Positions 4,250 to 35,301 of a stretch of DNA of 64,000 nucleotides are shown piece by piece. A program made the translations under genes and the position numbers. Under the pieces are notes generated by a model. That model ran no database searches and was not told the DNA's origin. It saw only the letters and a list, made by a program, of their open reading frames with translations. Location: NCBI GenBank assembly GCA_963711835.1, contig CAVQFQ010000017.1:480001-544000 (forward strand), read 5' to 3'. Each line of letters starts with the position of its first letter. Position 1 is the stretch's first letter. The DNA is from an uncultured delta proteobacterium. Its GTDB lineage: Bacteria; Desulfobacterota; RBG-13-43-22.

Positions 4250-5491
4250 TTAATCCTGGCAAAACAAATGGGCAAAAACCAGGGCATCCTTGATCAGGGA
4301 AGAAAGCGGACAGGATTCATTCGGTTGGTGGGCGGTTTCCGAGGAGGTCATCCAGACCGCGGCGGGAAGACCCTCTTTCCGGAAGAAGGCGGCCACAGTG
4401 GCCCCGCCGATGCCCTGGGGACGGGCTTCTCGGCCATAAACAGCCTTGATCGCCTGTTGCAGGGCCAGGACCACCGGGGCCTTATCCGGGGTCGGAGGAG
4501 GGGCCTGGACGGCGTTTATGACTTCCAGGCCTATATGCAGTCCGGTGTCGGTGGCCACCTCTTTGGCGATGCTTTTTATTTTTTTTACCACGTCGGTTAA
4601 GGGATAGGCCGGCAGGATACGGCAATCCAGAAAAAAAATGTCCTGCCCGGGTATGGTGTTGACATTGGGCACATTGGCCTCTTTTTGAGTCGGCTCAAAG
4701 GTGCTTCGGGGGAGATCAAAACGGGGATCTTCCTTATCGAATTGTTCAGGAAGTCTTTCCAAGGCGTTGATCAAGCGCGCGGTTCCCCGCAAGGTATTCA
4801 GTCCCAGGTCCGGCCGACTGGCATGGCATTGCCTGCCGGTCAGGGTGAATTTTAACCACAACAGGCTTTTCTCAGCCACCTCGATCAGGGTGCCTTCCCG
4901 ATTTCCGGCATCCGGAACAACAATTAAATCCTCCGGTCGGAAGAGAGAACGTTTCTTTTTTAAAACATATTCCAAACCCTTTTGACTCCCGGTCTCTTCA
5001 TCGGAAACGAAAATAAGACCAATGGAGGAAGCCGGCTGGATTTTTTCCTTCTGGAGGGCCTTGACGGCGAAGTAGGAGGATACGATGCCGTGCTGGTTGT
5101 CTTCCACGCCCCGTCCGAAAAGGGTCCGCCCTTTTACCTTCAACTGAAAGGGATCGCTCCGCCATAATTTCCGGTCGCCCGGGGGGACGATATCCATATG
5201 GCTCAAGATCCAGACCCTTCTCGAACGGCTCTTCCCCTCAAAAATGGAGAGAAGGTTGGGCCGGCCTTTTGAGGGGACCCGGGCATCCGGGCAGGTCACC
5301 TTAAGGGATCGCCCGGGATGTAAGGCTTTTAATTTATTTTCCAGGTAGCGGGCCTTGGCCTCCTCTCCCTGCCCGCCATTTTGCGGTCCCAAGGCCGGGA
5401 TGGCCGTCAACTCCCGTTGCATGGCCACCATCTCCTTCTGGTAAAGGGTAATCCTTTTTTTTAGGCCTTGCCAAAGACTTCCCGGAATCAT
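4250..5491 (-). CDS. M20 family metallopeptidase/deacylase (DapE/ArgE-like)
   Basis: SHMDIVPPG, GRGVEDN, DEETGS, HASRP and AHQPNE metal-binding motifs. Confidence 0.85.
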   Translation of the reverse strand: MIPGSLWQGLKKRITLYQKEMVAMQRELTAIPALGPQNGGQGEEAKARYLENKLKALHPGRSLKVTCPDARVPSKGRPNLLSIFEGKSRSRRVWILSHMDIVPPGDRKLWRSDPFQLKVKGRTLFGRGVEDNQHGIVSSYFAVKALQKEKIQPASSIGLIFVSDEETGSQKGLEYVLKKKRSLFRPEDLIVVPDAGNREGTLIEVAEKSLLWLKFTLTGRQCHASRPDLGLNTLRGTARLINALERLPEQFDKEDPRFDLPRSTFEPTQKEANVPNVNTIPGQDIFFLDCRILPAYPLTDVVKKIKSIAKEVATDTGLHIGLEVINAVQAPPPTPDKAPVVLALQQAIKAVYGREARPQGIGGATVAAFFRKEGLPAAVWMTSSETAHQPNESCPLSSLIKDALVFAHLFCQD

Positions 5492-6843
5492 TGGATTTTT
5501 CGGAAGGAGGTGACCTTCTGATAGTCTTCCAGTTGAGCGGTTAAAAAATGGACCTGCCGGGAGAGTTCCGGATTTTTTTTCAGGCCCTTCTCCACGGCAT
5601 TAACAGCGTAGATTACGGAGGTGCTGTCCCGGTTGAAGGCCTGGCCTATGTTTTCCAAAGTCTGATTGGTAAATTTTTTGCTGAGGTAGATGGAAAGGTT
5701 CCGGGGATTCAAATGGATCTTTTTCCTGGATTTGGAAATCATTTCCTCGGCTGAAACCCGGAAATATTTCCCCACCAGGTCCTTGATGGCCTTAATCGAC
5801 AGTTCCTGACGTTCCTGGATCTGTTCCCGGACGACCATTTCCGCCAGCGAAAGATCCGGGGCCTGATTGAGTAAGGTGGATTGGGCCGACATCCTGATCA
5901 AACAACTCTCCAACTGCCGGACATCCCGGAAGGGTTGGCTGGCTAAATAGGCCTTGACTTCGGGGTGGAGTCCAATGCCCAAGAGGGTTGTTTTCTTCTC
6001 CACAATCCCTAATCGGGTTTCAAAATCAGGCGGTTCAATGGCGCTTAATAAAGCGGAACTAAATCGTGATTTTAACTTATTGCCCAGGTGGGGAATATCT
6101 TTGGGAGGCAGCGAACTGGTGAAGATGACCTTTTTATTATAATTAAAAAGGGCGTCCAGGGTATAGCCCAATTCGGTCTGAGTGGTTTCTTTCCCGCTTA
6201 AAAAATTAACCTCCTCCAATAACAAAAAGTCGCAGTTCTTTCGATATTTATCCTTAAAGGATTCCATCTTACTGGTTTTTAAGGAAGCGATCATCTCGTT
6301 GGTAAAATCTTCGACTGAAAGATAGAGGACCTTGGCTGCGGGTTTGTGTTTTATGAGGTAATTCCCGACCGCCTGGGAGAGATGGGTCTTGCCTAAGCCG
6401 CTATGGGAAAAAAGAAACAGGGCATTATTATGCATATTCTTGTCTGAAGCCAGGGCTAATGAGGCTTGAAAAGCGAAATTATTCGTGGGGCCGGTTACAA
6501 ACTGATCGAAGGTAAAACTTCCGTTCAGTCGCAGGCATCCCGGCCGGGCAAAGCCCGGAATGAAGAATTGCTCCGGCTTGGAAGAAGGAGGTAAAGCCGT
6601 CTGAGGGGGGGAGACCTGGAAGCCGATCCTGGGAGGAATGGAAGTCATTTCGTTGGCCACAGCCCGGATGGCCGTAACATATCTTTCTTTGACCCAATTC
6701 AGGAAAAATTGGCTGGGGCAGCTTAACAGGATTTCTTCTTCGCCGGCACGAACGACCTCCAGGGGTTCGATCCACATCCGATAGGCCTTTTCGGGGATCT
6801 CGACCTGGAGCCGTTTCTTAATGCCTTGCCAGAATGATTCCAT
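5488..6843 (-). CDS. dnaA: DnaA-family replication initiator (divergent, possibly a second paralog)
   Basis: Domain I (WIEPL), AAA+ domain (FTFDQFVTG, GLGKTHL, SRF, PDFETR, RQLE) and domain IV HTH; start taken at ATG 6843 (MESFWQ). Confidence 0.8.
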   Translation of the reverse strand: MESFWQGIKKRLQVEIPEKAYRMWIEPLEVVRAGEEEILLSCPSQFFLNWVKERYVTAIRAVANEMTSIPPRIGFQVSPPQTALPPSSKPEQFFIPGFARPGCLRLNGSFTFDQFVTGPTNNFAFQASLALASDKNMHNNALFLFSHSGLGKTHLSQAVGNYLIKHKPAAKVLYLSVEDFTNEMIASLKTSKMESFKDKYRKNCDFLLLEEVNFLSGKETTQTELGYTLDALFNYNKKVIFTSSLPPKDIPHLGNKLKSRFSSALLSAIEPPDFETRLGIVEKKTTLLGIGLHPEVKAYLASQPFRDVRQLESCLIRMSAQSTLLNQAPDLSLAEMVVREQIQERQELSIKAIKDLVGKYFRVSAEEMISKSRKKIHLNPRNLSIYLSKKFTNQTLENIGQAFNRDSTSVIYAVNAVEKGLKKNPELSRQVHFLTAQLEDYQKVTSFRKIQ

Positions 6844-7625
6844 AAAAAAGAAGTCCCTTACCGAACCTTCGGTCTGCTTCAACATGAATGAGGGTGAATG
6901 ATATCTTAAAAAAGCATCCCACAGCCGACCCCGGGAATGAGGGTCCCTGTGAAGAGGGAAAAGGATCAATTATAAAGAAAGGATCGTTTAGGTTGATTTC
7001 GTTGAAATGAATTGAGTGGAGTTTTATCCGAACTAAAACCTCCTGTCAAACGGAATAAAGCCAATTTTATAGTTAGCTCCTTCCCTGAAGGGCCGGGCGC
7101 CGGAAGGGCCGTGACTTCTGTCTGCCGGATCATCTCCTCCGGCTAAGTGACTAATACTCTTTTTTATAATAAGATTCTAAAAATTTTTAACTAATTGTCG
7201 GGGTTAGCCTGATTCCGGCGAAAAGGAGAAGGTTTCCCCTGTTCAGCGATCTTTTGTTTCCTACCCTTTCCTTTTTTTTTTAAAGCCTGCCCTCCTTTCA
7301 GGGTTACAATTACGCCTTCGCGGATGCCTAATCTTTAAAAAGGGGTGATAATCAAAAGGTTGTTACAAGGCCCAGCCCTCTTCCTATCGCCAATAAACGC
7401 TTCAAGGGAGATCCCTTCCAGAAATGGTATCTTATCAACAGGATATTCCCCTAAAAATTTTTTCACTTTCCCAATTTTTTTTGTTCTTGTCAAATTGCCC
7501 TGATCAAGTAAACTCCCGGTAACCGGTTCTTATAGGGAAAAGATGTTTTCGGCTGAAAGCTGTCCGCGATCAGCTTTCAGCCATCAGTGAAAAACCTTAA
7601 CCAAATGGTTTAAGCGGAGAAAAAA

Positions 7626-10275: not shown

Positions 10276-10474
10276 GCCGGAGAAAAAATCCTTAGGGGAA
10301 AATCTTGAAGCCATACGGACTATCGTTGACCAGATGGAAAGACTCCTGGGGGATTTGCAGGAACTGGGCCGGGACGCACCGGTCATCGAGAAGAATGCCA
10401 AGGCCATGATGAGTTTCGTTGCTATCCTGCGCTACGGCATATCCGATATTATTACTATTAGAAATTTGGAATAA
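10268..10474 (+). CDS. Small hypothetical protein
   Basis: 68-aa ORF overlapping the ligase stop, with plausible RBS. Confidence 0.55.
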   Translation: MNKPEKKSLGENLEAIRTIVDQMERLLGDLQELGRDAPVIEKNAKAMMSFVAILRYGISDIITIRNLE

Positions 10475-10607
10475 ATCCGAATTTCGAAGCACGAAATCCG
10501 AAACAATCTCAAATTTTCAAAATCTAAATTGTTAAAACAATAACTTCAATTTTTGATATGTGGTCATTCGGATTTGTTTCGAATTTCGAAATTCGGATTT
10601 CGAATTT
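10473..10607. repeat. Inverted heptamer-repeat element
   Basis: Left arm AAATCCG-AATTTCG-AAGCACG-AAATCCG-AAACAA (10473-10506) mirrored by TTGTTT-CGAATTT-CGAAATT-CGGATTT-CGAATTT (10574-10607). Confidence 0.75.
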
Positions 10608-12131: not shown

Positions 12132-14417
12132 ATGGAAAAAGAATTTCAGGTCGTCGGACAGCGCCTGCCCATGCATGATGCGGCCGCCAAGGCCAAAGGA
12201 ACGGCCCTATTCACGGACGATATCGTTCTTCCGGGAATGCTTCATGGAAAGATTCTAAGGAGTCCCCTACCTCATGCCCGAATCCTGGCCATCGATATCT
12301 CCCGGGCCAAGAAACTTCCCGGTGTAAAAGGCGTGGTAACCGGCCAGGATATCCCGGATCGGCAATACGGCATTGTGCCCAAGGCCAGGGATGAATACGC
12401 CCTGGCCCGGGGGAAAGTCAGATATATCGGTGATGATGTAGCCGCTGTCTGCGCCATCGATCCGGAGATTGCCGAAGAGGCCCTCGAACTGATTAAAGTG
12501 GAATACGAAGAGCTTCCGGCCGTATTTGATCCCCTGGAGGCCATCAAAGAAGATGCCCCGGTAATACATGAGGGTGTTAAAAATAATACCTCCATTTATA
12601 TCCGGAAGGAATTCGGTGATGTGGAAAAGGCCTTTGCTGAAAGCGATTACGTCTTTGAAGACTCCTTCTATTCCCAGCCGGTCAATCATGCCCCCCTGGA
12701 ACCCCACGCGGCCCTTGCCCAGTATGATCCGCTACGAGGTGAATTCACCGTCTATTCCTCTACCCAGATACCCTTCTTCCTGCGACGGAATCTCTCGGCC
12801 ACACTCAAGGTTCCGGAATCCAGTGTTCGGGTCATCAAGCCCAAGGTGGGCGGCGGGTTCGGACAAAAAATAGACATGTTCGCCAAGGATTTCTGCGCCG
12901 CCTGGTTTGCTAGGGAGACGGGCCGGCCGGTCAAGTTTGTCTATGAGCGGGAAGAACTCTTCATCGCCACCCGGCAGCGGCATCCCATGACTATAACGGT
13001 TAAGACCGGCATGAAGAAAGACGGCACCATCATGGCCCAAAAATTCAAGGCCTATGCCGACGGCGGGGCCTATAACAGCACGGCCCCGACCATGATCGCC
13101 CTTTCCTGTTATTTTCTCATGATCCCCTACCGGGTGCCCAACCTGATTTACGAAGGGCATCATGTTTACACCAACAAACCGGTGGGCGGAGCCATGCGGG
13201 GCCACGGTATCCCCCAGGCCCGTTTTGCCGTGGAACGCCAGTTGGATATGATCGCCGATCGAATTGGTATTGATCCGGTTGATCTGCGGTTGAAAAACAG
13301 CATTCATGCCGGCGAGCCGCATCCGGCCAAATTTATCATCAACTCCTGCGGCTTTTCCGACTGCGTCGTCAAGGCGGCTGAGGCCATAGGCTGGAAGGAG
13401 AAAAGAGGAAAAATGCCCAGAGGAAGAGGCGTGGGAATCGCCGGGGCCTCTTTCCCCAGCGGGGTCAGCAACATGAGTCATATCAGCTCCGGGGCGGTGG
13501 TTCAATTGGGGCAGGACGGCGCCGTCAATGTCCTTTCCGGGGCCGCCGACATCGGTCAGGGCGCTGAAACGGTCATCTCTCAGATTGTTGCGGAGGTGCT
13601 GGGCGTGCCCATGGAGGATGTCAGGATCACCGCCGCCGACACAGGCATCACTCCCCTGGATCCGGGGACTTTCGGAAGCGGCGTGACCGTCAGGGCCGGC
13701 AATGCGGCCCGTTTGGCTGCCCTGGTGGTCAGGGAGAAGATCTTCAAATTCGTGGCCGACAAACTGGAAGCCAATAGCGACGATCTGGTGGCCCGGGATA
13801 GGACCATCTTTGTCAAAGGTTCTCCGGACCGGGGGATGTCCTTGAAGGAGGCCATCAAAGGGTATCAGTATGCGGACCTGCCCATGCCCATTATGGGAAG
13901 ATCGGCCTGGTTTCCACCGGCTACCGAACCAACCACCCTCTTCAAGGAAGACGGCAATTTCGCACCCAGCTATTCCTTTATGGCCCAGGCGGCTGAAGTG
14001 GATGTTAATCTGGAGACCGGTCAGGTGAAACTTCTGAAGATGGTCACGGCCCATGACTGCGGCCGGGCCATCAACCCCATGCTGGTTGAGGGCCAATTGG
14101 AAGGTTCGGTTGTGGGCGGTATGGGACAGGCCCTCTATGAGAACGTCATTGTTGAAAAAGGGCAGGTGATGAATCCTTCTTTTCTGGATTATGGTTTCCC
14201 CACCTTTCTTGAGATGCCCGAAATAGAGGCCATCGAGGTTGAAACCGACGACCCGGTGGGGCCCTTTGGGGCCAAGGAAGCCGGCGAAGGAACCCAGTTA
14301 TCCCCGGCCCCGGCCATTGTCAATGCCATCTATGATGCCATCGGCATTGATTTCAAGGAACTGCCCGTCACACCCGAAAGGGTCCTCCAGGCCTTGGAAG
14401 AGAAAAAGAAACCTTGA
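12132..14417 (+). CDS. hcrA: Molybdopterin-binding subunit, 4-hydroxybenzoyl-CoA reductase alpha-like
   Basis: VGGGFG, GAMRGHG, DIGQG and GAKEAGEG motifs; B-C-A gene order. Confidence 0.75.
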   Translation: MEKEFQVVGQRLPMHDAAAKAKGTALFTDDIVLPGMLHGKILRSPLPHARILAIDISRAKKLPGVKGVVTGQDIPDRQYGIVPKARDEYALARGKVRYIGDDVAAVCAIDPEIAEEALELIKVEYEELPAVFDPLEAIKEDAPVIHEGVKNNTSIYIRKEFGDVEKAFAESDYVFEDSFYSQPVNHAPLEPHAALAQYDPLRGEFTVYSSTQIPFFLRRNLSATLKVPESSVRVIKPKVGGGFGQKIDMFAKDFCAAWFARETGRPVKFVYEREELFIATRQRHPMTITVKTGMKKDGTIMAQKFKAYADGGAYNSTAPTMIALSCYFLMIPYRVPNLIYEGHHVYTNKPVGGAMRGHGIPQARFAVERQLDMIADRIGIDPVDLRLKNSIHAGEPHPAKFIINSCGFSDCVVKAAEAIGWKEKRGKMPRGRGVGIAGASFPSGVSNMSHISSGAVVQLGQDGAVNVLSGAADIGQGAETVISQIVAEVLGVPMEDVRITAADTGITPLDPGTFGSGVTVRAGNAARLAALVVREKIFKFVADKLEANSDDLVARDRTIFVKGSPDRGMSLKEAIKGYQYADLPMPIMGRSAWFPPATEPTTLFKEDGNFAPSYSFMAQAAEVDVNLETGQVKLLKMVTAHDCGRAINPMLVEGQLEGSVVGGMGQALYENVIVEKGQVMNPSFLDYGFPTFLEMPEIEAIEVETDDPVGPFGAKEAGEGTQLSPAPAIVNAIYDAIGIDFKELPVTPERVLQALEEKKKP
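14122..14410 (+). repeat. Direct repeat A (3' end of hcrA), second copy at 19203-19491
   Basis: 289-bp ungapped match with 12 mismatches by manual count. Confidence 0.95.
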
Positions 14418-14480
14418 CAGGAAACCGGCAATTCCTTAAAATAAAAGTAAGGCAAAATATTCCTTACTTAGAGGTGACGC

Positions 14481-14720
14481 ATGATCGTCGCAAAAATAAC
14501 GTCCAAAGGGCAGGTGACCATCCCCAAAAAGGTCAGGGAAAAACTTGGGGTTCAGCCCGGAGAAGGTCTGGGTTTTGAAGAAAAAGGAAACCTGATTCTT
14601 ATCAGGAAAGCGGTAACCAAATCTCCCTTTGACCGGTGGGTGGGTAAGCTGAAACATCTTAAGGGGCGACGAAGCGACGACCTGGTCAGGGATATTCGGG
14701 GTCATGATAACGGCCGTTGA
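14481..14720 (+). CDS. AbrB/MazE/SpoVT antitoxin (VapB-like)
   Basis: KITSKGQVTIPKKVREKLG AbrB motif; CCTTA...TAAGG inverted repeat upstream. Confidence 0.85.
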   Translation: MIVAKITSKGQVTIPKKVREKLGVQPGEGLGFEEKGNLILIRKAVTKSPFDRWVGKLKHLKGRRSDDLVRDIRGHDNGR

Positions 14721-15199
14721 CACCAACTATTATCCTCGATGTCCTTATTCCGGATGAACCTTTCCGACCGTCCTCCAAAAACCTTTTGGACCTGCATTTA
14801 TCAAAGGGCAAGCTCATCCTTTGCGAGATCGTCTTTGCCGAACTGGCAGCTCACTTCCCATCCGAACCTGAACTCAGACTGTTTCTGACCGAAACCGGGA
14901 TGCGGCTGGAATATTCAAACGAGAAGTCGCTCTATATTGCCGGCACCAGATGGGCCAACTATGCCAAAAAGGGAAACAAAGACCGGTTTATTTGCGGCCA
15001 ATGCAACCAGGTCTTTGCTGCAGCCTGCCCGAAATGCTCGACGGCCTTCACCAAAAGGCTTCATGTCTTGGGGGATTTCCTCATAGGGGCCCATGCTCTG
15101 GTAAAGGCCGACTGCCTGCTTTCCCGTGACCTCGGGATCTATAAGACCTACTTCAGGGATCTCAAGGTAGTCAACTCGAATAATCCATCGGCCGGTTAG
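14704..15199 (+). CDS. PIN-domain toxin (VapC-like) with Zn-ribbon insertion; +1 frameshift near 14728
   Basis: ATG 14704 gives MITAVDTN, continuing after one extra base as IILDVL...AEL...DFLIGAHA...LLSRD. Confidence 0.75.
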
Positions 15200-15258
15200 A
15201 GTGACAGCCTTATATTTTCAGCAGCAAATTCGATGCAAAGAAAATAGAGTTGATAAAC

Positions 15259-15303
15259 AGACCTGAACCTCGCTCCGCTTTTTCTTGTACTATAATTACC
15301 AGA
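15259..15303. repeat. Direct repeat B, identical copy at 19675-19719
   Basis: AGACCTGAACCTCGCTCCGCTTTTTCTTGTACTATAATTACCAGA (45 bp) occurs twice. Confidence 0.95.
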
Positions 15304-15468
15304 TAACTAAGAGCCAAGAGCAGACCCTTTCATCGCCCTGCAAAAAAAAGATAGTTTTTTGCAATGAAGATTTTTTTCTCTTGACATGGCCTTTTAATGG
15401 GTGACTCTTTCACTTCTGTGATATCTTCAAAATACCTTCTTGCCATGCTTGCCTGTCGTCTCCTCTAC

Positions 15469-15553
15469 GTCTAACACCGTATTCAGCCGCCGACCGACCA
15501 CCCATTAGGAGAAATACTCGCTACCCACGGTCGGCTGCAATAATTGGTTGGCA
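15469..15553 (-). other. Integron attC site 1
   Basis: Minus strand TGCCAAC...GTTAGAC ends, inner complementary arms with a bulged base, 3 bp after the toxin stop. Confidence 0.75.
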
Positions 15554-15556
15554 GGT

Positions 15557-15892
15557 TTACAGTTTCAAATCGATAAGTCTTCTCAGAAGAATATCCTCAA
15601 CGTTCTGCCGGGAATCCAGCACAGACAGAACGTATACCTTGTTCTCCGAAACTCTATATATGATCCGCCATGGTGGAATAATCATCTCACGATACTGCGT
15701 AACCCCGTGATCCAGCAATTCCGGAACAATACGGCCTCTATCAGGGAAAACTCGAAGCCTTGACGCTCTTTCCTTAATGCTTTTGAATACCTCGTTAGCT
15801 TGATGAGGGTTATCGTCGGCGATGTACTGAACGATCGTAATAAGATCGCTCTCTGAAGTGTCCGACCATCGCACGTCGTAGCGTTTCTTCAT
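15557..15892 (-). CDS. RelE/ParE family toxin
   Basis: DLITIVQYIADDN...FPDRGRIVPEL...WRIIYRV...VLDSRQN. Confidence 0.85.
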   Translation of the reverse strand: MKKRYDVRWSDTSESDLITIVQYIADDNPHQANEVFKSIKERASRLRVFPDRGRIVPELLDHGVTQYREMIIPPWRIIYRVSENKVYVLSVLDSRQNVEDILLRRLIDLKL

Positions 15893-16170
15893 TTCATCTT
15901 TTCTTTCAGAATTGTCTCAATGTTTGCAAATACTTCTTCCTGAGACTTTGTTTTTCCGCGTCTCACGTCTTCTTCGCCTTGGGAAAGGAGCTTCAAAATC
16001 CCTATGGCGTTCCTCATGTTTTCATAGCTCTTAGGGTCCTGGAGCACGGCCCGGGGTTCTCCATTTTGGGTAATGATCACAGGCCGATGCGTTTCATTTA
16101 TTTGTTTCAACAAATCGGGAGCCTTTGATTTTAGATAAGTAATTGGCTTGATATCTTTTGAAATATTCAT
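15889..16170 (-). CDS. Phd/YefM family antitoxin
   Basis: DIKPITYLK...PVIITQNGEPRAVL; overlaps the toxin start. Confidence 0.85.
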   Translation of the reverse strand: MNISKDIKPITYLKSKAPDLLKQINETHRPVIITQNGEPRAVLQDPKSYENMRNAIGILKLLSQGEEDVRRGKTKSQEEVFANIETILKEKMK

Positions 16171-16378
16171 GTCATCACCTCCAGTCTTTATATGGTACTA
16201 TAAAAAGACTGGTTGTCAATTCTTTTGGTGTTTCCTGCTCTCGCCAAATCGGGAAAACCGTCTTTTTTAGCCTCAAAAAACTCATTATAGGCCCATTTTA
16301 AAGGGTACAGATGATAATATTCCCTGCCAGATCAAGAAGTTGTCGAGGCCCGACCCCGTTAAGTAAGTCCTATTTATT

Positions 16379-17266
16379 TCAAACATTGGCTTTCACAGCA
16401 TGTTGAGAAATGGCGTCTACTATTTCTGCCCAAACCCCTTTTGGCATGTCATGCCCCATTCCATTAATTATAAATAATCTTGCCCCTGGTATCACCCGAG
16501 CTGTATTTTTTCCTCCTTCGACCGGTATCAGCGGATCATCAGCCCCATGAATTACAAGTGTTGGGACTTTAATAGTTGAAAGCGACGGTCTTCGATCGCC
16601 ATTGACAAGAATAGCTATGTTTTGACGAGCCATTCCCTGCGGGTAGTATGAACGATCATAGCTCTTCTCTATGAACGTACGAGCTCTCTTTTCCTCAAAT
16701 GGAAATCCTGGACTCCAAAGCCTCCGCCATATATTCATATTGTGTTCAATATATGCTTCGCGTTCCTCTGGTGCCGGCGCGATAACAGTAGCTATTGTTT
16801 CCGGTTCCCCCTGCGGAAGATCAGGATTTCCTGTGGTCGACATTATTGAAGTGAGACTCAGGACATGTTTTGGATGTCGATAGGAGATAACCTGGGCTAT
16901 CATACCGCCCATTGAAGCACCACAGATATGTGCCTTCTCAATGCCTAAAGCATTAAGTAAACCAACGGCGTCATCTGCCATATCATCGAGAGAATATGCT
17001 GATTCCACAGGCTTGCCTTCCATTAAAGCTTTGATTGCAGCCGGAAAGTCAGGAATTCCTGCTTCTTCAAATTTTGTCGAAAGACCTGCATCCCGGTTGT
17101 CAAACCGAATCACAAAGTAACCATTTTTTGCAAATAACTCGCAGAATTCGACTTCCCAAAAAATCATCTGAGCCCCATTACCTGCAACTAATAATAATGC
17201 CGGGGTAGAACTATCACCGAAAGTATCATATTCAATCTGGATTCCATTGGCCGTCACATTAGGCAT
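16379..17266 (-). CDS. Alpha/beta hydrolase
   Basis: RFDNRDAGLS, GASMGG nucleophile elbow, HGADDPL and GMGHD; AT-richer than core genes. Confidence 0.9.
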   Translation of the reverse strand: MPNVTANGIQIEYDTFGDSSTPALLLVAGNGAQMIFWEVEFCELFAKNGYFVIRFDNRDAGLSTKFEEAGIPDFPAAIKALMEGKPVESAYSLDDMADDAVGLLNALGIEKAHICGASMGGMIAQVISYRHPKHVLSLTSIMSTTGNPDLPQGEPETIATVIAPAPEEREAYIEHNMNIWRRLWSPGFPFEEKRARTFIEKSYDRSYYPQGMARQNIAILVNGDRRPSLSTIKVPTLVIHGADDPLIPVEGGKNTARVIPGARLFIINGMGHDMPKGVWAEIVDAISQHAVKANV

Positions 17267-17365
17267 TGCTGACTCCTTTTCCTGTTAATATCGTGAATTA
17301 CTATATTTATCTTGACCCACAACATGGGCGTCATTCGGAGCCGGCTTTTTCGGCGATCGAGGTTT

Positions 17366-17392
17366 GGGGCCAGGTCTTGAAATATCACTTTT
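17366..17392. repeat. Orphan copy of the RAYT terminal repeat
   Basis: GGGGCCAGGTCTTGAAATATCACTTTT versus GGGTCAGGTCTTGAAATATCACTTTT at 18264. Confidence 0.85.
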
Positions 17393-17454
17393 ATTGTTTC
17401 CTCTACCTCACTATCAATCGGGCGAGAAGTAGGGCTGAACCAAGGATAACCGGT

Positions 17455-17823
17455 TTATTCGATCCTGATCTTTGCGGCCCCTTTTTCCTTCTTCAGTAAG
17501 GTAGGGTCCTCTAATAATCTTCCCACCATGTTGACCTCGCTGGCCGGGACCGGATCGGAACCGGTGCTCATGGGGGTTGGACCGAAAAATATGGCCAGGG
17601 CTTTGCCCGGAGGCCAATACCCGATATCACCGGCCTTCACCCTCCGGGTGGCCGATTCATCCAGGGGCATATTGACCGGAATCTCAAAATAGAACTCATC
17701 GCCCCATTCATTAGGCCGGGTTTCGAGGGGGAGGCTGGCGAAAACGGCCTGGGCACAAGGAGAATCGAAGAGTTCGGCGTTTAGGGTTGTCTGTCCGATG
17801 AAAATTTTAATTGGGTTCGGCAT
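17455..17823 (-). CDS. Cyclophilin-like fold protein
   Basis: WGDEFYF and GDIGYWPPGKALAIFFGPTP. Confidence 0.8.
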   Translation of the reverse strand: MPNPIKIFIGQTTLNAELFDSPCAQAVFASLPLETRPNEWGDEFYFEIPVNMPLDESATRRVKAGDIGYWPPGKALAIFFGPTPMSTGSDPVPASEVNMVGRLLEDPTLLKKEKGAAKIRIE

Positions 17824-17870
17824 AGTTGAAAATAAAGAAATCGTGCCTCTCTATCTAAGGTCTATCTAAG

Positions 17871-17931
17871 GCCCAACATCGGGCGTCAGTGGCGCGGCAC
17901 CGCCGCGTTCGCCTGGATGCACTGGTTAGCC
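17871..17931 (-). other. Integron attC site 2
   Basis: Minus strand GGCTAAC...GTTGGGC, 61-bp imperfect palindrome. Confidence 0.75.
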
Positions 17932-18224
17932 ATTTGCTAAAAACCCTTTGTGAAACATGACAGTGCCTTTATAGGGCCAAGGCCATACCAATTAAGGCTG
18001 CCATCGGAAATTGCTATAGGCGAGAACGCTATATGGCCGACCACTTTTCCATTAACTTCTGCGACTAGCGAAATGGTCAGCGCATTGGCATCACGTAATG
18101 CATTTATTATGAATTGTTCCGTATGATTACTAATTGCAAGATTCTGGAAGGCTGCAATGGTAACTTTCGATATCGCTTCAATATCTGAAATTGTTTCATT
18201 CCTTATGATCATTTTAAACTCCAT
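17926..18224 (-). pseudogene. GNAT acetyltransferase cassette with internal deletion
   Basis: IIRNET...VVGHIAFSPI...WYGLGP is cut before motif A; the C-terminus GTVMFHKGFLANG* survives in another frame, with its TAA inside the attC GGCTAAC. Confidence 0.7.
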
Positions 18225-18263
18225 ATTCGGACAGGATATTTATTTGGTGGCTAATGGGTCATA

Positions 18264-19192
18264 GGGTCAGGTCTTGAAATATCACTTTTTATTTTTCTCT
18301 GCTTTTGCCATCACCTTACTGACAGTAGTATAATGAATTCCCAAATAGTCCGCAATTTCTTTCAGGGTATATCCTTGGCTCATATGAGCACGGCGGATGC
18401 TTATATTTCTTTGGTCTTTTGTTTTCTGTCCCCTAAAAATATTATCGAGGCTTGGCCTGCCTATATATCTCTGTGAGCGAGGAATTTCCTTTATCTGTTT
18501 TTTGTCTTCTAAAACATCCTTGAATTTTTCAACAAATTCCTCTTCTCCCAACAATACTTGATTCTGAAGCTCTTCCCATGAAGCACTCCCATGGATTCCC
18601 TCCTGTACAAACGACCGGTATCGCCTTTTGGCAATAGTTCTTCGAGAGTTGAAAAAACCCAGAATCCAGCCAGTGGTGAGGTACTCCGGCTCTTTGCCTA
18701 TTCCTGCCGTGGCCAGATAGCTGCTCCATCTCCAAGCCTCGATCTTTTTGACTATCCCGGCCCGCACAGGATTCAATACAACATATCGGCAGAGTTCAAG
18801 AAGATAGTTTTCTTTTTGGACTAAAATTGCCTTGAAACGTCCTTGAAAAATATGACCAGGTTTTTGGTGTCTTCTATTATAGCGTTGAGTATAGACACCG
18901 TTCAATTGGCGCATACCTGACGAAAGGTTGGCATCGGGTGTTTCGATCATAAGATGGTAGTGGTTATCCATGAGACAATAGGCATGACAGAGCCAGTTGT
19001 ATCGTTTGACAACGGAGCCTAAGATAGAAAGGAATATCTGCCGATCCTGATCATCTTCGAATATATCTTTACGCCCATTCCCTCGGGATGTGACATGATA
19101 GACTGCACCAGGATATTCAATTCGTAACGGTCTGGCCATAAGATAATCCTAATAAAAAATTACTTATATTCTGATATTTCAAGACCTGACCC
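18264..19192 (-). mobile_element. RAYT-like HUH Y1 element with 21-bp terminal inverted repeats
   Basis: GGGTCAGGTCTTGAAATATCA (18264-18284) and its exact reverse complement (19172-19192) bracket the gene. Confidence 0.8.
18282..19139 (-). CDS. REP-associated tyrosine transposase-like protein (IS200/Y1 HUH fold) with C-terminal HTH
   Basis: YHVTSRGN, AYCLMDNHYHL (HUH), RYVVLNPVRAG (catalytic Tyr), WSSY and TLKEIADYLGIHYTTVS. Confidence 0.9.
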   Translation of the reverse strand: MARPLRIEYPGAVYHVTSRGNGRKDIFEDDQDRQIFLSILGSVVKRYNWLCHAYCLMDNHYHLMIETPDANLSSGMRQLNGVYTQRYNRRHQKPGHIFQGRFKAILVQKENYLLELCRYVVLNPVRAGIVKKIEAWRWSSYLATAGIGKEPEYLTTGWILGFFNSRRTIAKRRYRSFVQEGIHGSASWEELQNQVLLGEEEFVEKFKDVLEDKKQIKEIPRSQRYIGRPSLDNIFRGQKTKDQRNISIRRAHMSQGYTLKEIADYLGIHYTTVSKVMAKAEKNKK

Positions 19193-19202
19193 CACTGACC
19201 CC

Positions 19203-19510
19203 TGGGACAGGCCCTCTATGAGAACGTCATTGTTGAAAAAGGGCAGGTGATGAACCCTTCTTTTCTGGATTATGGTTTCCCCACCTTTCTGGAGATGCCC
19301 GAAATAGAGGCCATCGAGGTTGAAACCGACGACCCGGTGGGGCCCTTCGGGGCCAAGGAAGCCGGCGAAGGAACCCAGTTATCCCCGGCCCCGGCGATTG
19401 TCAATGCCATCTACGATGCCATCGGCATTGATTTCAAGGAACTGCCCGTCACCCCGGAAAAGGTCCTTCAGTCTTTGGAGGAGAAAAAGAAGCAGTCCCA
19501 AGAAAGATAG
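19203..19510 (+). pseudogene. Orphan 3' fragment of an hcrA allele (repeat A, copy 2)
   Basis: Near-identical to hcrA codons GQALYE...EEKKK with a different tail (QSQER*); starts directly after the RAYT end. Confidence 0.9.
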
Positions 19511-19674
19511 CCTCCCCTTTTTCTTCTCGTGAGGTTATCGTGCCTCCAACCGTTTCTTTTATCGCCTCAAAGGTACGATGGTTTGAATTGTGGCGTTTTG
19601 GCACAGCACCCAATTGCCTAAAGAACCCCAAAATTTAATCAGGCATCTAAAAACAAGTTAGAGGTCAAGAAAAT

Positions 19675-19719
19675 AGACCTGAACCTCGCTCCGCTTTTTC
19701 TTGTACTATAATTACCAGA
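19675..19719. repeat. Direct repeat B, copy 2
   Basis: Identical to 15259-15303. Confidence 0.95.
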
Positions 19720-20128
19720 CTGAACGGCTCACCTCCTTCTTCAGCAGCGCAGCGTTTCGTTCCAGGAATTCCATCACGGACTCAACCGCTGCCATCTCAA
19801 CAAGCCCGAGTCCGTAGTGACTCGCCAAGTAGCAGAACGCAAAGGCCAGACGCGGATCTGACAACACCGCACCCTGGCTCGCGAGGTTCGCGACGTAGCT
19901 GGCCAACGCCGAGTCGGTCGCACGCTTCAGGGTCGCGCCGCGAGAAGGCAGGCTTCGAAACTTCAGGGCTACCGCGGGAGCAAGGTGAAAGAGCTCCTGC
20001 TCGTCAATGCGTTGACCGACGGCGGGGCCGAAGGGAATTGCCTCTCGAGCGTCTGCGTACGCCGCCCGGATTTCCTCCAGCCACGCTTCCGGCGTTGCTG
20101 GGAGCTCTCGTTGTTCCAGTCTCTTCAC
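19712..20128 (-). CDS. Hypothetical cassette protein (GC-rich), stop supplied by repeat B
   Basis: Begins just after attC 3; no own attC; TGG TAA lies inside repeat B. Confidence 0.6.
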   Translation of the reverse strand: MKRLEQRELPATPEAWLEEIRAAYADAREAIPFGPAVGQRIDEQELFHLAPAVALKFRSLPSRGATLKRATDSALASYVANLASQGAVLSDPRLAFAFCYLASHYGLGLVEMAAVESVMEFLERNAALLKKEVSRSVW

Positions 20129-20142
20129 ATCTTCCTCGTGAA

Positions 20143-20206
20143 GCCCAACGCCCCGGCTGACCCGACGGGTGCTTTTGCCCGGTCGGTGTCGAGCCGGTTG
20201 TTATGT
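20143..20206 (-). other. Integron attC site 3
   Basis: Minus strand ACATAAC...GTTGGGC with arms CCGGCTCGAC / GTCAGCCGG. Confidence 0.8.
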
Positions 20207-20213
20207 GAAGCGA

Positions 20214-20624
20214 TCACTTTATACTCACAGGAGGTGCTTTTGATGAAACGTTTTCTTTTGTGGTGGCGGTCTCACCAAGTTCTTTCAGAGGTGTTGTCGC
20301 CTTTGTACTTATGCCTTTATCAATCTTGGTTTGTGGCTGGGTATGTTCTCTCTGCCACCAGCGAATATCTGGACCGTATTTTTGGATTAATCCTCCAAAT
20401 ATTGCGGATAGGGCGCTGATAATGGCAGCGATTATGACGATTCGTTTGTTTAACTTGTGTTGCTCTACCATGATTTCTCTATTTAATCGTTGCTGCTCTT
20501 TTATTAGGTGCTCCTCCCATTCCATTTGTGCAAGAAACGGAGCAGGGCTGCCATCTTTAAAATCCCTTGCTTTTGCCAGAGCAATTTTGGCTTTCTCTTC
20601 CTCTGTCATGGCTTTATCGGTCAT
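20214..20624 (-). CDS. Hypothetical membrane protein, complete gene cassette
   Basis: One predicted TM segment; bounded by GTTATGTGA at its 5' end and TCACATAAC at its 3' end. Confidence 0.65.
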   Translation of the reverse strand: MTDKAMTEEEKAKIALAKARDFKDGSPAPFLAQMEWEEHLIKEQQRLNREIMVEQHKLNKRIVIIAAIISALSAIFGGLIQKYGPDIRWWQREHTQPQTKIDKGISTKATTPLKELGETATTKENVSSKAPPVSIK

Positions 20625-20633
20625 TTATTCCTC

Positions 20634-20689
20634 ACATAACGCGAAGTTCACCGGGAGCGTTAGCGATCCGGGGGAACGTCTTGATAGAC
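20634..20689 (-). other. Integron attC site 4 (R'' degenerate)
   Basis: Minus strand GTCTATC...GTTATGT with arms GTTCCCCCGG / CCGGTGAAC. Confidence 0.7.
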
Positions 20690-20698
20690 CACACACAG

Positions 20699-21130
20699 TT
20701 ATAATTCCTTTTTTTGCCACGCAGAATAAACAAAATAAAATGCGGGTACCGCTATAATGGGTATGAGTAATGCACCAAATCCTTCAGAACGAAAGAACAC
20801 ATAAGTAAACGAAACAGTCCCGATCAATATAACTAATCCAAATACTACAGCAACAGTACGCATATGCGCGTTTGCAAACAATGAAGAGCAAGTTTTTAAT
20901 GCAGCGAAAGCAGATAATCCATTCATTAGCATGCCACGAATAATTGCTGTCAGCAGACCGGGGTTGTCTGCCTCGCTAGCACCACCAAATCTCTCCGGAA
21001 TAAATATTTTACCGAAAAAAATTAATAATTTTTCAAGTACCGGTGTTACCAGATAAATCATGATCAGATAGATAGCAACACTTGCAAGTGCTGCAACAAT
21101 AGTTTGCCAGATAGAAGAAGAACGATTCAT
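20699..21130 (-). CDS. Hypothetical multi-TM membrane protein (cassette)
   Basis: About four hydrophobic segments, AT-rich, followed by attC 4. Confidence 0.65.
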   Translation of the reverse strand: MNRSSSIWQTIVAALASVAIYLIMIYLVTPVLEKLLIFFGKIFIPERFGGASEADNPGLLTAIIRGMLMNGLSAFAALKTCSSLFANAHMRTVAVVFGLVILIGTVSFTYVFFRSEGFGALLIPIIAVPAFYFVYSAWQKKEL

Positions 21131-21211
21131 ATTGCTACTCCAAATAATAGATTCATACGGTCTTTCGGGTTCGTCTCAACATATTGTGATTATTGGTTTT
21201 AATCCTCTGGT

Positions 21212-21454
21212 TTATTCACCACTGCAGTAGGCTTCCCATTGCCACACATGCAAGCCCCACCCGGAAAAAAATTTTGTCAATGTAGCATACGGTCGCTTCG
21301 CGGTACGATCCATCTTCGGCTGTCTTAACGATGTATTTCCATACTTCTTTTCTTTCTTGCTCCTCGCTGAAAGGGTATATTTATTCTCGATTTTGATCGC
21401 GAAAGCCAAGCATATCGTCCCCAATATAACAAGCAATATGCCACCATGACCCAA
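21212..21454 (-). pseudogene. Possible 5'-truncated gene fragment
   Basis: Weak ORF beginning at a TGACCC motif junction. Confidence 0.3.
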
Positions 21455-21458
21455 TGAA

Positions 21459-21568
21459 GGGGTCAGGTCTGCTCTTGGCTCTTTCTTTTTCCCCCTACGC
21501 CAACTCCATTTTAATTTCCCCCCACCTCAACTCTAGCACCTTATAATCCCAAGGTCAGCCACCTGAAA
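21459..21568 (+). repeat. Direct repeat C, diverged copy at 22471-22581
   Basis: GGGGTCAGGTCTGCTCTTGGCTCTTTC...TTATAATCCCAAGGTCAGCCACCTGAAA versus GGGATCAAGTCCTGCTTTTAGCTCTTTC...TTATAATCCCAAGGTCAGCCCCCTGAAA. Confidence 0.9.
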
Positions 21569-21827
21569 GGCCACCTCCAAGGAGCCGGAAAATAAAAAAG
21601 GCCCTGCTGCTCGATTATGAGGCAGGGCCTTCACGTTCCATTCATCCTCCCGCATTTAAGGTTAGACGAGAAAAAGAAAAGGGAAATTAACCGGATAGCC
21701 AGTGAATAGCATAGAAAATTTCCCCTGTCAATACATAGCGGGTTTTGGGATTTATGGAATTTTTTCCTAAGGCTTGACAAGGCCGCCTTACTAATGTATT
21801 GTATTTTGTAAGGAGGATTTGCAACCT

Positions 21828-22070
21828 ATGCTCGTCAAGATCACCAGCAAGCGACAAGTTACCTTTCCGGCACAGGTTTTGAAGGCACTGGGAGTTCATC
21901 CCGGTGAAAGTCTCGAACTGGTGAAGGGACCGGACGGCTTTCTCCTGCGCCCCCGCCGCATTGATACTTCCCGACTGGCGCCCCTGCGAGGGAAACTTAA
22001 CCGCGGCCAGGGAAATTTCAACCTCGAAACTTTTCGAAATGAGCCCCATGACCAAACGCTTCGGGATTGA
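21828..22070 (+). CDS. AbrB/MazE antitoxin
   Basis: VKITSKRQVTFP; upstream TTGACA and CCTTAC...GTAAGG inverted repeat. Confidence 0.8.
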   Translation: MLVKITSKRQVTFPAQVLKALGVHPGESLELVKGPDGFLLRPRRIDTSRLAPLRGKLNRGQGNFNLETFRNEPHDQTLRD

Positions 22071-22446
22071 CACCTCTATCCTGGTTCGTCTGGCAACCGG
22101 GGATCCTAAAGCTGGATTTGAACAGTGCATGCGAAGGCTAACTCGGTTGGTCGAGGAAGGTCAGGCCGAAATCTTCGCCTCTAATCAAGTTATTGGCGAA
22201 GCCTATATTGCCTTGCAGCACCACTATGGGGTCAGCAAATCGGACGCGCGTGCCGCCCTGACCAGTGTCCTGAGCAGCGGAATGGTGTCTCCCTTGAATG
22301 GAATATCCGTCTTCGAAGACCTCGCAGCCAGGGGCGGTTGCGGTCTTCTCGATCGATTGATTGCCGGCGATTATCGACGCGCGGAATTGGTCACTCTCAC
22401 TCTGGATCGTCGGATGGTTTCCCTCCCGGATGTTCAGGCTTTATAA
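22048..22446 (+). CDS. PIN-domain toxin (VapC-like)
   Basis: GIDTSILVR...GEAY...LLDRLI...TLDRR. Confidence 0.8.
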   Translation: MTKRFGIDTSILVRLATGDPKAGFEQCMRRLTRLVEEGQAEIFASNQVIGEAYIALQHHYGVSKSDARAALTSVLSSGMVSPLNGISVFEDLAARGGCGLLDRLIAGDYRRAELVTLTLDRRMVSLPDVQAL

Positions 22447-22470
22447 CTCTTCAGTTAGATCAATTTAATA

Positions 22471-22581
22471 GGGATCAAGTCCTGCTTTTAGCTCTTTCTT
22501 TTTCCCCTACGCCATACTCCATTTCAATTTCCCCCCACCTCACCTCTGGCACATTATAATCCCAAGGTCAGCCCCCTGAAA
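22471..22581 (+). repeat. Direct repeat C, copy 2 (upstream of tpx)
   Basis: Matches 21459-21568. Confidence 0.9.
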
Positions 22582-22611
22582 TGCCGATCCCAAAAAACTT
22601 TCTTCCGGCCC

Positions 22612-22649
22612 TTGACTTTCATAAAATAGGATTAATAATAATTATTATC
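22612..22649 (+). promoter_or_regulatory. Putative promoter with overlapping Fur/PerR-like box
   Basis: TTGACT at 22612; ATTAATAATAATTATTATC (22631-22649) matches 15 of 19 positions of the Fur consensus GATAATGATAATCATTATC. Confidence 0.5.
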
Positions 22650-22670
22650 AAAAAAGGGGAGGGGACAACT

Positions 22671-23186
22671 ATGGAAGAACGGACTGGTCTGGTAAGCCTG
22701 CAAGGGAATCCTCTGACATTATTAGGCCCGGAGCTTAAAGTGGGAGACCAGGCGCCGGAGTTTGAGGTCTTGGATAATAATCTGTCTCCCATCCAGTTGG
22801 CTTCATTTAAAGGAAAGATAATCATCCTGGCTTCGGTACCCTCTCTGGATACGCCGGTGTGTGACCTGGAAACCCGGCGTTTCAATACCGAAGCCGGAAA
22901 ACTGGATCCGGACATCCGGATACTGACCATCAGTATGGATTTGCCTTTTGCCCAGAAGCGCTGGTGCGGGGCAGCCGGGGTGGATAAGGTCGTTACGCTT
23001 TCCGACCACCGGACAGCTTCTTTCGGAAGCGCCTACGGCGTCCTGATCAAGGAACTGCGCCTCTTGGCCAGGGCTGTTTTTGTCTTGGACCGGGAGGGAG
23101 TCATCCGCTATATCCAGGTCCTCCCGGATCTGGCCCAGGAGCCGGATTATGACGAAGTAATCAAGGTTGTTGAAAAACTGGTCTAA
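22671..23186 (+). CDS. tpx: Thiol peroxidase
   Basis: VPSLDTPVC, SMDLPFAQKRWC, LLARAVFV and EPDYD. Confidence 0.92.
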   Translation: MEERTGLVSLQGNPLTLLGPELKVGDQAPEFEVLDNNLSPIQLASFKGKIIILASVPSLDTPVCDLETRRFNTEAGKLDPDIRILTISMDLPFAQKRWCGAAGVDKVVTLSDHRTASFGSAYGVLIKELRLLARAVFVLDREGVIRYIQVLPDLAQEPDYDEVIKVVEKLV

Positions 23187-34978: not shown

Positions 34979-35301
34979 GTCCCAAAGTTACGTGATTTTT
35001 TAAGCACTCCATTCATAGAGGGCTTCAGGGGTCTTGATTTCAAGGATTGTCCGCCAAAGGGACGCCGTAGCCTCAACCCGGGCAGGAATTTCTAAGTGGG
35101 TTAGAAACCGGCCAACACCTAAGACGATAACTCGCTTTGGTGAATGGCCCGGCTCCCAACCCACTTAGAAATTCGGGCCGGGTTGGGGCTCGGATACGCT
35201 TTGGCGGACAATCCTTGAAATCAAGACCCCTGAAGCCCTTTGGGGTGATTTAATATTTTAGAGGCTACCCCTTCGGTTTAAGAATCACATAACTTTGGGA
35301 C
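34979..35301. mobile_element. 323-bp fold-back palindromic element (MITE-like)
   Basis: Terminal IR GTCCCAAAGTTA / TAACTTTGGGAC; perfect 41-bp inner IR (35019-35059 / 35199-35239) and further paired arms. Confidence 0.75.

Follow-up and report, generated by a model that had tools for sequence, protein, structure and literature searches.

Results

A strain-variable block between an hcrA-like gene and tpx

We have analyzed a stretch of 64,000 nucleotides (C17:480001-544000, hereafter the window) from a 3.9-Mb metagenome bin that is 89% complete with 6.4% contamination, in which a patchwork of genes lies between an hcrA-like gene and tpx. The gene content suggests a probably anaerobic organism resembling deltaproteobacteria. 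At the center of this locus is a 285-residue Y1/HUH gene (18282-19139, minus strand) enclosed in a perfect 21-bp inverted repeat (18264-18284 / 19172-19192), a unit that we assign to the TIRtrons, i.e. tyrosine transposase genes (TIRYT) flanked by terminal inverted repeats (TIRs). The main features outlined by an earlier sequence-only reading of this DNA were borne out, comprising 1) a RAYT-like HUH gene bounded by 21-bp inverted repeats; 2) three direct repeats, at 14122/19203 (the duplicated hcrA part), 15255/19671 (B) and 21469/22482 (C); 3) pieces of differing base composition, with a GC content of 0.42-0.51 over 15-22 kb vs. mostly 0.52-0.59 in the flanks on both sides. As the gene called hcrA in that reading scores below the HcrA cut-off of 994 bits (Table 1), we refer to it as hcrA-like.

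Within the locus lies a 4,416-bp block that holds cargo, the TIRtron and the 3' end of an hcrA-like gene, is bounded by the two copies of repeat B and is lacking in related strains. An empty allele, with 15258 joined directly to 19675, was recovered from the contigs of 3 of the 8 metagenome runs compared (X1, X3 and X4) as well as from contigs L176 and L177. It occurs both in a near-identical strain in X1 (identical to ours for 112 nt on the left side of the joint) and in the 3-4% diverged strain of L176, rendering an insertion here likelier than a deletion elsewhere, and we surmise that the empty state is probably ancestral. No such joint was recovered from the other runs (X2, X5, X6, X8 and X9), which, given their patchy cover, is no evidence either way.

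The junction that closes the block, at 19202/19203, contains no microhomology and places the TIRtron tip against a site in the hcrA-like gene that aligns base for base with the TIR tip. This site (14123/19204) scores only 4-5 on our matrix of TIRtron ends; the weakest-looking of the motif copies at the locus is nevertheless the most informative one, and its relevance comes only from the junction falling exactly there. The chance of such a site per position ranges from 1e-4 (GGGWCAGG) to 2e-3 (at most 3 of 11 mismatches, 0.18%), with six sites of at most 3 mismatches in the 2,286 nt of that hcrA strand; these figures stem from a test done after the fact on one junction, with the motif itself defined in advance from the element and from published work.

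The second hcrA copy (hcrA') differs from the first by 10 synonymous and 2 conservative changes ahead of a divergent tail, a skew with a P of about 2e-4 if the copy were unselected and 30% of changes were synonymous; in addition, it has 15 differences from L176 while copy 1 has only 5. The synonymous pattern together with the greater distance from L176 indicates that hcrA' came from the working allele of another strain. The order of the block, B-cargo-TIRtron-hcrA'-Y-B, is a circular permutation of hcrA'-Y-B-cargo-TIRtron. With this junction and the empty allele, the block has the make-up expected of surrogate-end capture, a unit bounded by one true end and one look-alike end, in a single case.

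Could the long allele have been created by joining the alleles of two strains during assembly? The source is a metagenome bin with some contamination, and the long form was found in no other sample among the pieces listed. However, the key junction has no shared sequence on which an assembler could collapse, the inner junctions and the second allele recur in other samples (17364-17688 in X6, 19331-19412 in X4, 21466-21683 in X3 and 22493-22731 in X1), and a chimera would not be expected to land on a cryptic TIR. We therefore regard misassembly as hardly credible.

Table 1. Features of the locus by position in the window (TA, toxin-antitoxin; IS, insertion sequence; ORF, open reading frame).
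Feature	Position	Strand	Remark
hcrA-like molybdopterin-binding subunit, intact resident copy	12132..14417	+	TIGR03194 761 bits
Cryptic TIR-like site in hcrA	14122..14132	+	3 mismatches to 11-nt core; start point of second copy
AbrB/MazE antitoxin and PIN-like gene (TA1)	14481..15199	+	
Repeat B1	15255..15303	+	left block boundary; degenerate TIR end with left-facing tip (15269), plus 34 nt
4,416-bp block lacking in related strains	15304..19719	.	crossover somewhere in 45 identical nt of B
C-family TIR end	15304..15330	-	
Truncated right end of IS1111-type element	15336..15408	+	element targets TIRtron TIRs
attC-like site	15469..15553	-	
phd-parE TA pair	15557..16170	-	
D-family TIR end	16238..16357	-	with 120-nt inner segment; starts directly past AAC box of hydrolase cassette
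Alpha/beta hydrolase cassette gene	16379..17266	-	
Half attC	17317..17359	-	cut 6 nt from TIR tip; continues in relative L169
R relic	17365..17400	+	gene-distal end of resident TIRtron fused to cyclophilin-like gene
Cyclophilin-like gene	17455..17823	-	
attC-like site	17871..17931	-	closes GNAT cassette
GNAT-like cassette gene	17937..18224	-	internal deletion at 17969/17971
TIRtron	18264..19193	-	TIRYT gene 18282-19139 between 21-bp TIRs
3' fragment of second hcrA allele	19203..19510	+	tip-to-tip with TIRtron at cryptic TIR
Repeat B2	19671..19719	+	degenerate TIR end (tip 19685) plus same 34 nt; right block boundary
Cassette array remnant	19712..21454	-	ORFs 19712-20128, 20214-20624, 20699-21130, 21212-21454
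attC sites within array remnant	20143-20206, 20634-20689	-	
Repeat C1	21459..21572	+	C-family TIR end plus ~90 nt
Promoter-to-terminator repeat	21589..21731	-	~110-140 nt, U-rich tract
AbrB antitoxin and PIN gene (TA2)	21819..22446	+	
Repeat C2	22470..22585	+	degenerate C1 copy beside tpx promoter

The resident element is a TIRtron with mobile homologs

The protein of the resident element carries the motifs N59-H60-Y61-H62, F98-Q99, Y119-x-x-x-N123-P124 and W138-S139-S140 of TIRYT subclass 2.1.2, with NHYH, Y119, NP and WSS kept in 57-59 of 59 sequences and the catalytic residues in 58-59 of them. Besides Y1_Tnp, HTH_23 matched residues 254-276 just below its cut-off (E 1.1e-4, 22.3 bits), and the predicted structure (pLDDT 88.6) places three C-terminal helices at 241-284. 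The top match in a fold search was TnpA-REP (4ER8, E 4.5e-7), followed by the transposases of ISDra2 and IS608; these matches came from the fold search alone, as a sequence search of the PDB with the protein returned none. Among the profiles, NF047646 scored above its cut-off and NF033573 reached 19.6 bits vs. a cut-off of 55. The flanks of the gene harbor TIRs and no REP-like palindromes such as the GTAG-tagged hairpins expected of a REPtron RAYT (groups 2/3), and instead of the short TnpA, YxxxQ motif and subterminal hairpins of IS200/IS605 we found 285 residues with a YVVLNP motif. Judged by its motifs, helix-turn-helix (HTH) and TIRs, the element is a TIRtron/TIRYT of Quentin subclass 2.1.2 and not a REP-type RAYT; accordingly, the comparison with REP/REPIN spread in the sequence-only reading had chosen the wrong class.

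The class of TIR-flanked tyrosine transposases, with motif GGGGWSAS, is defined in the available text of Di Nocera et al. 2013 (PMC3733652); that of Quentin et al. 2018 (PMC6006769) equates it with subclass 2.1, present in ~15% of sampled genomes, and that of Bertels et al. 2017 (PMC5581495) credits RAYT group 1 with the highest duplication rate of the five RAYT groups proper. The resident element shares with the class the Y1 HUH gene, GGGGWSAS TIRs, the NHYH/FQ/YxxxNP/SS signature, a C-terminal HTH and dispersed TIR families without REPs.

Our homolog set comprised 79 loci, 60 of which yielded an inverted repeat, a few of these probably by chance. One homolog genome holds 7 copies that are at least 97.7% identical and another 3 copies at 99%; together with the inverted repeats at 60/79 loci, this argues that the TIRtron family moves as a unit, and by sequence its members behave like multi-copy IS elements. 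A target duplication of at least 4 nt was seen at 0 of the 42 homolog loci with both ends, ruling out such duplications as a mark of insertion, and the viral contigs searched contained no homolog. At seven near-identical TIRtrons (L046-L049, L052, L054 and L060), the outer flanks mostly read AAC-N3-4 at both ends, which suggests a target preference specific to that family. We do not claim a preference for AAC (an attC-box target) as a general rule: AAC precedes the tip at 38 of 101 homolog ends vs. 13.9 expected, but at 4 of 63 ends in this genome vs. 7.9. Copying of outer flanks from one end of an element to the other drew weak support, with matches of at least 5 nt in 15% of comparisons within loci vs. 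7% between loci of one TIR family, and we make no claim for it.

The motif copies trace to four TIRtron families

All eight motif strings listed in the sequence-only reading occur where it had placed them, and the motif is clearly enriched, with 3 of the 5 exact 11-mers of the 3.9-Mb genome falling inside the locus. An end matrix trained only on homolog ends (n=54) gave 5 matches at a score of at least 14 in the 8.46-kb locus, compared with an expectation of 0.23; two of these matches are the ends of the resident element itself. These copies are not, as had been proposed, variants of one core, but ends of four TIRtron families: 1) the R family of the resident element, confined to 17365, 18263 and 19193; 2) the C family, at 21459, 22470 and a ninth end at ~15330 that had been overlooked, a family also met elsewhere in the genome and in relatives, where its ends frequently form pairs with no gene between them; 3) the D family, at 16357, belonging to a different TIRYT that is 24% identical to the resident one and intact in L001; 4) the B family, with tips at 15269 and 19685, resembling a 140-bp two-ended element in L168. 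The genome as a whole holds 79 TIR-like ends and at least nine further TIRYT loci or relics. Beside C1, an inverted GGGTCA lies ~6 nt outside the tip (21447-21459), at the start of the seemingly truncated ORF 21212-21454; this is possibly a second tip-to-tip join.

TIR tips as recombination points

Several observations point to the tips of these ends as sites of recombination. Exact tandem repeats that run into the TIR and stop within its first few bases were found at 18 of 102 homolog ends, compared to none of the 102 inner controls and 8 of the 2,040 sites picked at random, and short stutters of this kind flank both tips of the resident element (18255-18262 and 19194-19202). Comparison with intact homologs verified three truncations no more than 10 nt away from a tip: at 15336 in the IS end, at 17359 in the half attC and at 19203 in hcrA'. 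In run X6, where the R relic and the cyclophilin gene recur (17364-17688, 5 differences), a different outer flank begins exactly at the tip; in L159, the D end and phd are likewise followed by another flank, starting 5 nt outside the tip. At C5:298843 of this genome (G000), a TIRtron tip adjoins a 5'-truncated fragment of an integron integrase. The claim that the enzyme nicks and joins at the motif thus stands in part: the truncations, stutters and one junction support the tips as recombination points, while the ordered platform run by a single enzyme does not follow. A search for duplications anchored at tips, covering 125 tips of homolog loci and the 79 ends of this genome, revealed several tips beside truncated repeats and no second clear case like hcrA; a candidate on C8 proved to be a 118-nt repeat only.

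Much of this could in principle arise passively, with TIRtrons and their miniature copies piling up at tolerated sites, and with ordinary deletion and host recombination making the truncations and the block, TIRYT carrying no cargo at all. Shared tolerance would also explain why 12 of the 48 end clusters in this genome lie within 2 kb of a TA gene (2.6 expected). In keeping with passive pile-up, gene-less two-ended copies are common, and the cargo genes of a second array, on C4 (L211, G000 C4:350900-353650), are found in relatives at 13 loci with no TIR bordering them, a few of these loci beside attC. What passive accumulation leaves unexplained is a junction devoid of microhomology whose position coincides exactly with a cryptic TIR in the allele of another strain, the circular permutation of the block and the three verified breakpoints within 10 nt of tips. 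We judge it unlikely.

An IS1111-type element targets TIRtron TIRs

According to the sequence-only reading, the window lacks any integrase, recombinase or DDE transposase; no integrase or transposase was indeed found in a search that took in 40 further ORFs of at least 200 residues, but a recombinase has left its mark as the right end of an IS1111-type element (Table 1). Full elements of this type exist in L156 and L157 (G004:C27 and G014:C14), where the features listed for the IS1111 family in the available text of PMC11187229 are all present: a DEDD transposase, a 3' non-coding region and subterminal repeats 6-7 and 3 bp from the ends. The left-end motif of this IS occurs in 16 of 401 genomes, with TCARRTCT as flank in 11 of 30 returned loci, and 11 of 17 distinct right flanks begin with TGACCC. 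The insertion point is the TGA inside the TIR, not its tip. Each of the two full elements has, within its 3' non-coding region, 8 nt that match the site it actually targets, a guide-like covariation (n=2). Contigs matching the IS end had a summed depth of ~600-700 in runs X1 and X8. In genome G196, the same left end is inserted 17 times, and 7 of 7 fetched copies (L182, L196, L202, L204, L206, L208 and L209) lie in another repeat, TCAGAGCCTGGGAACGAG, which suggests natural retargeting.

In the text available of PMC11187229, IS4321/IS5075, ISPa11 and ISKpn4 share with our element the DEDD transposase, the long 3' non-coding region, the subterminal repeats and the guide-like target match; unlike these elements, which target TIRs, REPs or attC, ours is directed to a TIRtron TIR. 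A search of the openly accessible literature returned no IS that targets TIRtron ends.

Recombination by this putatively RNA-guided element, or by IntI at secondary sites, might be thought to have made the motif junctions with TIRYT as a bystander, given the relic at 15336-15408, the recurrent flanks, the covariation and an intact IntI in 6 of 21 family genomes. However, recombination by the IS takes place at the TGA within the TIR and not at the outer tip, where both the hcrA' junction and the truncations fall, and this genome, at 89% completeness, yielded no close copy of the transposase and no IntI above cut-off. This alternative is in our view highly improbable.

A decayed integron cassette array as the likely source of most cargo

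By sequence, the locus is a decayed integron cassette array that carries many TIRtron ends. To detect attC, three home-made heuristics (two failing, one poor) were dropped in favor of our own 10-sequence covariance model, which has rough E-values and includes the four window sites in its training set. When each is taken singly, only two of these four attC-like sites fold better than their shuffled versions. No complete integron was found, as there was no PF00589 match in the window and only IntI fragments elsewhere in the genome, with none above the cut-off that IntI exceeds in 6 of 21 family genomes. The locus does resemble a cluster of attC sites lacking an integrase (CALIN), with several co-oriented attC sites, TA cassettes, no nearby intI and cassettes that differ between strains at attC: L176 and L177, 2 of 4 matches to the query (the remaining two look like chance), share hcrA, TA1, B and the cassette 19720-20149 with our strain, diverge at the attC core at 20149 and carry other cassettes beyond. 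In contrast to a CALIN, several attC sites here are cut or replaced by TIR ends. From these features we infer that the cargo is mostly integron-derived and first arrived as cassettes via IntI and attC. The closest homolog, L001 (5100-13516), is likewise a cassette array with an intI-like fragment (identified by eye) and has been invaded by three different TIRtrons.

The integron cassettes and three TA pairs of the sequence-only reading were largely upheld, with attC at the cassettes and three TA-like pairs; the PIN assignments are less firm, PIN1 having no Pfam match and PIN2 falling just under the cut-off. The PIN1 frame seems shifted by one base near its start (14706-14730), where contigs of run X5 are one base shorter, and this looks like a sequencing error or a pseudogene. 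At 17849-17870, an 11-bp tandem duplication lies beside an attC AAC box with no TIR nearby.

Is the resident enzyme an integron-like platform?

The strongest claim of the sequence-only reading was that the resident enzyme repeatedly inserts foreign DNA at the motif in the manner of an integron integrase, with TIR copies as cassette boundaries. Some arrays do have this appearance. On C4, four ends of one family and one orientation sit at cassette boundaries between a TA pair, cupin-like and methyltransferase-like genes; in L172 (G019:C38:52000-63745), four direct D-family ends bound blocks encoding a beta-lactamase-fold protein, TA pairs, a GGDEF-like gene and relatives of IS66/IS630; and two direct repeats separate single genes in L170. 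There are 8 direct neighbor pairs of ends in this genome, and both in the C4 array and at 16357 a TIR end occupies the expected position of attC. Nonetheless, only one of the four end families at the locus is cognate to the resident enzyme, the strains differ at attC, extra motif copies drop to background beyond ~2 kb, and the element moves like an IS. The survey of homolog neighborhoods, which the same claim had led one to expect would be rich in attC, gave attC matches at just 4 of 79 loci, 2 of them training loci, indicating that TIRtrons are not generally tied to integrons. The hcrA-tpx interval offered no help either: across 10 related genomes, none of the 11 regions compared downstream of an hcrA homolog matched RAYT, TA or tpx. 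With the neighborhood not conserved, the breakpoints that an alignment of relatives was meant to deliver had to come from metagenomes, where they were obtained. We conclude that one enzyme acting as platform is an overstatement and quite doubtful.

Discussion

A proposed mechanism for capture of the block

Our preferred reading, to which we assign a probability of roughly 55%, is that TIRYT excised the block as a circle from a related strain, with the TIRtron tip and the hcrA look-alike as its two ends, and that the circle entered this strain at the 45-bp repeat B. We propose this mechanism because of the chemistry described for TnpA-REP, namely a single-strand nick, a 5'-phosphotyrosine and strand transfer (PMC3479197 and PMC8266576, in the text available), where any 3'-OH could resolve the phosphotyrosine link (PMC3479197). 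On single-stranded DNA, TIRYT would nick paired TIRs at their tips, hold the 5' end on Y119 and, by analogy with the peel-and-paste of IS200/IS605, rejoin the ends without a target duplication. A cryptic TIR in host DNA could replace one of the two ends, in which case the intervening DNA would be released as a circle; upon passage to this strain, either host recombination or TIRYT itself may have inserted the circle at B. Nicking, local re-synthesis and rejoining would yield the stutters at the tips, and the IS1111-type element may add further breaks by targeting the same motif. In a variant without a circle, a linear piece of donor DNA would be joined at the tip and recombine further right, with the same joint between tip and cryptic tip being required.

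A number of observations weigh against excision and capture by TIRYT. It is a single event; the long allele rests on this assembly, no run among the pieces listed bridging its full length; the donor allele hcrA'-Y-B-cargo was not seen; and the runs and contigs with the empty allele may share one sampling campaign. The tip at B is degenerate, and a circle would have found longer homology in hcrA' (289 nt, with perfect runs of up to 56 nt), leaving the choice of B unexplained. Some breaks at the locus, namely the deletion in the GNAT gene (17969/17971) and the transition from hcrA to TA1, have no motif. Moreover, joins between a tip and a cryptic tip were found at 1 of 101 homolog ends vs. 2 in the control, and the pattern of adjacent tips was matched in 1 of 21 genomes, leading us to reject tip-to-tip joins as a general rule.

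Even so, the data at this locus suggest that the enzyme likely carried neighboring genes between strains. More tentatively, and on balance we doubt it, any TIR tip, whether orphan or cryptic, might serve TIRYT, which would turn TIRtrons into an overlooked HUH gene-capture system: the dozens of ends that such genomes hold would move adjacent genes as circles, replace attC in decayed integron arrays and create integrase-free tandem arrays delimited by TIRs.

Relation to known systems and significance

In its fold and predicted chemistry, TIRYT resembles TnpA-REP of E. coli (4ER8), the enzyme of REPtron RAYTs, as described in the available portions of PMC3479197 and PMC8266576. It differs from TnpA-REP in that there are no GTAG-tagged hairpins here, the substrate is apparently the TIR tip, and the homologs are multi-copy and mobile rather than domesticated. 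With IS200/IS605 elements such as IS608 and ISDra2, it has in common the fold family and the absence of target duplication; unlike these, it has true TIRs in place of subterminal hairpins and 285 residues with an HTH, and it stays far under the NF033573 cut-off. The accounts of TIRtrons that we consulted (PMC3733652, PMC6006769 and PMC5581495) mention, in the text available, no mechanism, empty sites, tip stutters, cargo between surrogate ends or IS targeting TIRs.

A search of the openly accessible literature also found nothing on capture of cargo by TIRtrons. Adjacent genes are known to move when a look-alike replaces one end of an element, as in ISEcp1 transposition units and one-ended capture by IS91/ISCR; ISEcp1 relies on a DDE enzyme and generates target duplications, and IS91/ISCR are rolling-circle HUH enzymes without TIRs. 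What is new here is a 4,416-bp block with an empty-site allele, one well-marked and probable capture event in a decayed array.

The term TIRYT is rare in the openly accessible literature. With its exact junction, its empty allele and a true and a cryptic tip as candidate substrate pair, the locus makes the cut site, the circle and the capture of cargo directly testable. If capture were to be general, TIRtrons would constitute another route by which accessory genes, integron cassettes included, pass between strains. The motif is also the shared target of a putatively RNA-guided IS1111 element, linking three recombination systems at one type of site.

Other features of the window

The repeat at 21589-21731, which runs from a promoter-like site to a terminator, has 6 copies in the genome (the others at C21:254203, C21:5521, C23:2433, C9:41525 and C16:13162) and more in relatives. 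A search of Rfam over 14000-23000 with E up to 1 gave no match. We dropped an amino-acid attenuator as explanation, since the other copies are not upstream of related genes; the repeat is a candidate small RNA family. Elsewhere in the window, long intergenic palindromes with no relation to the TIR families lie at 35071-35188 and 10458-10600. The dnaA gene is found at 5488-6969, ~7 kb off the locus, and the hotspot may therefore adjoin the replication origin.

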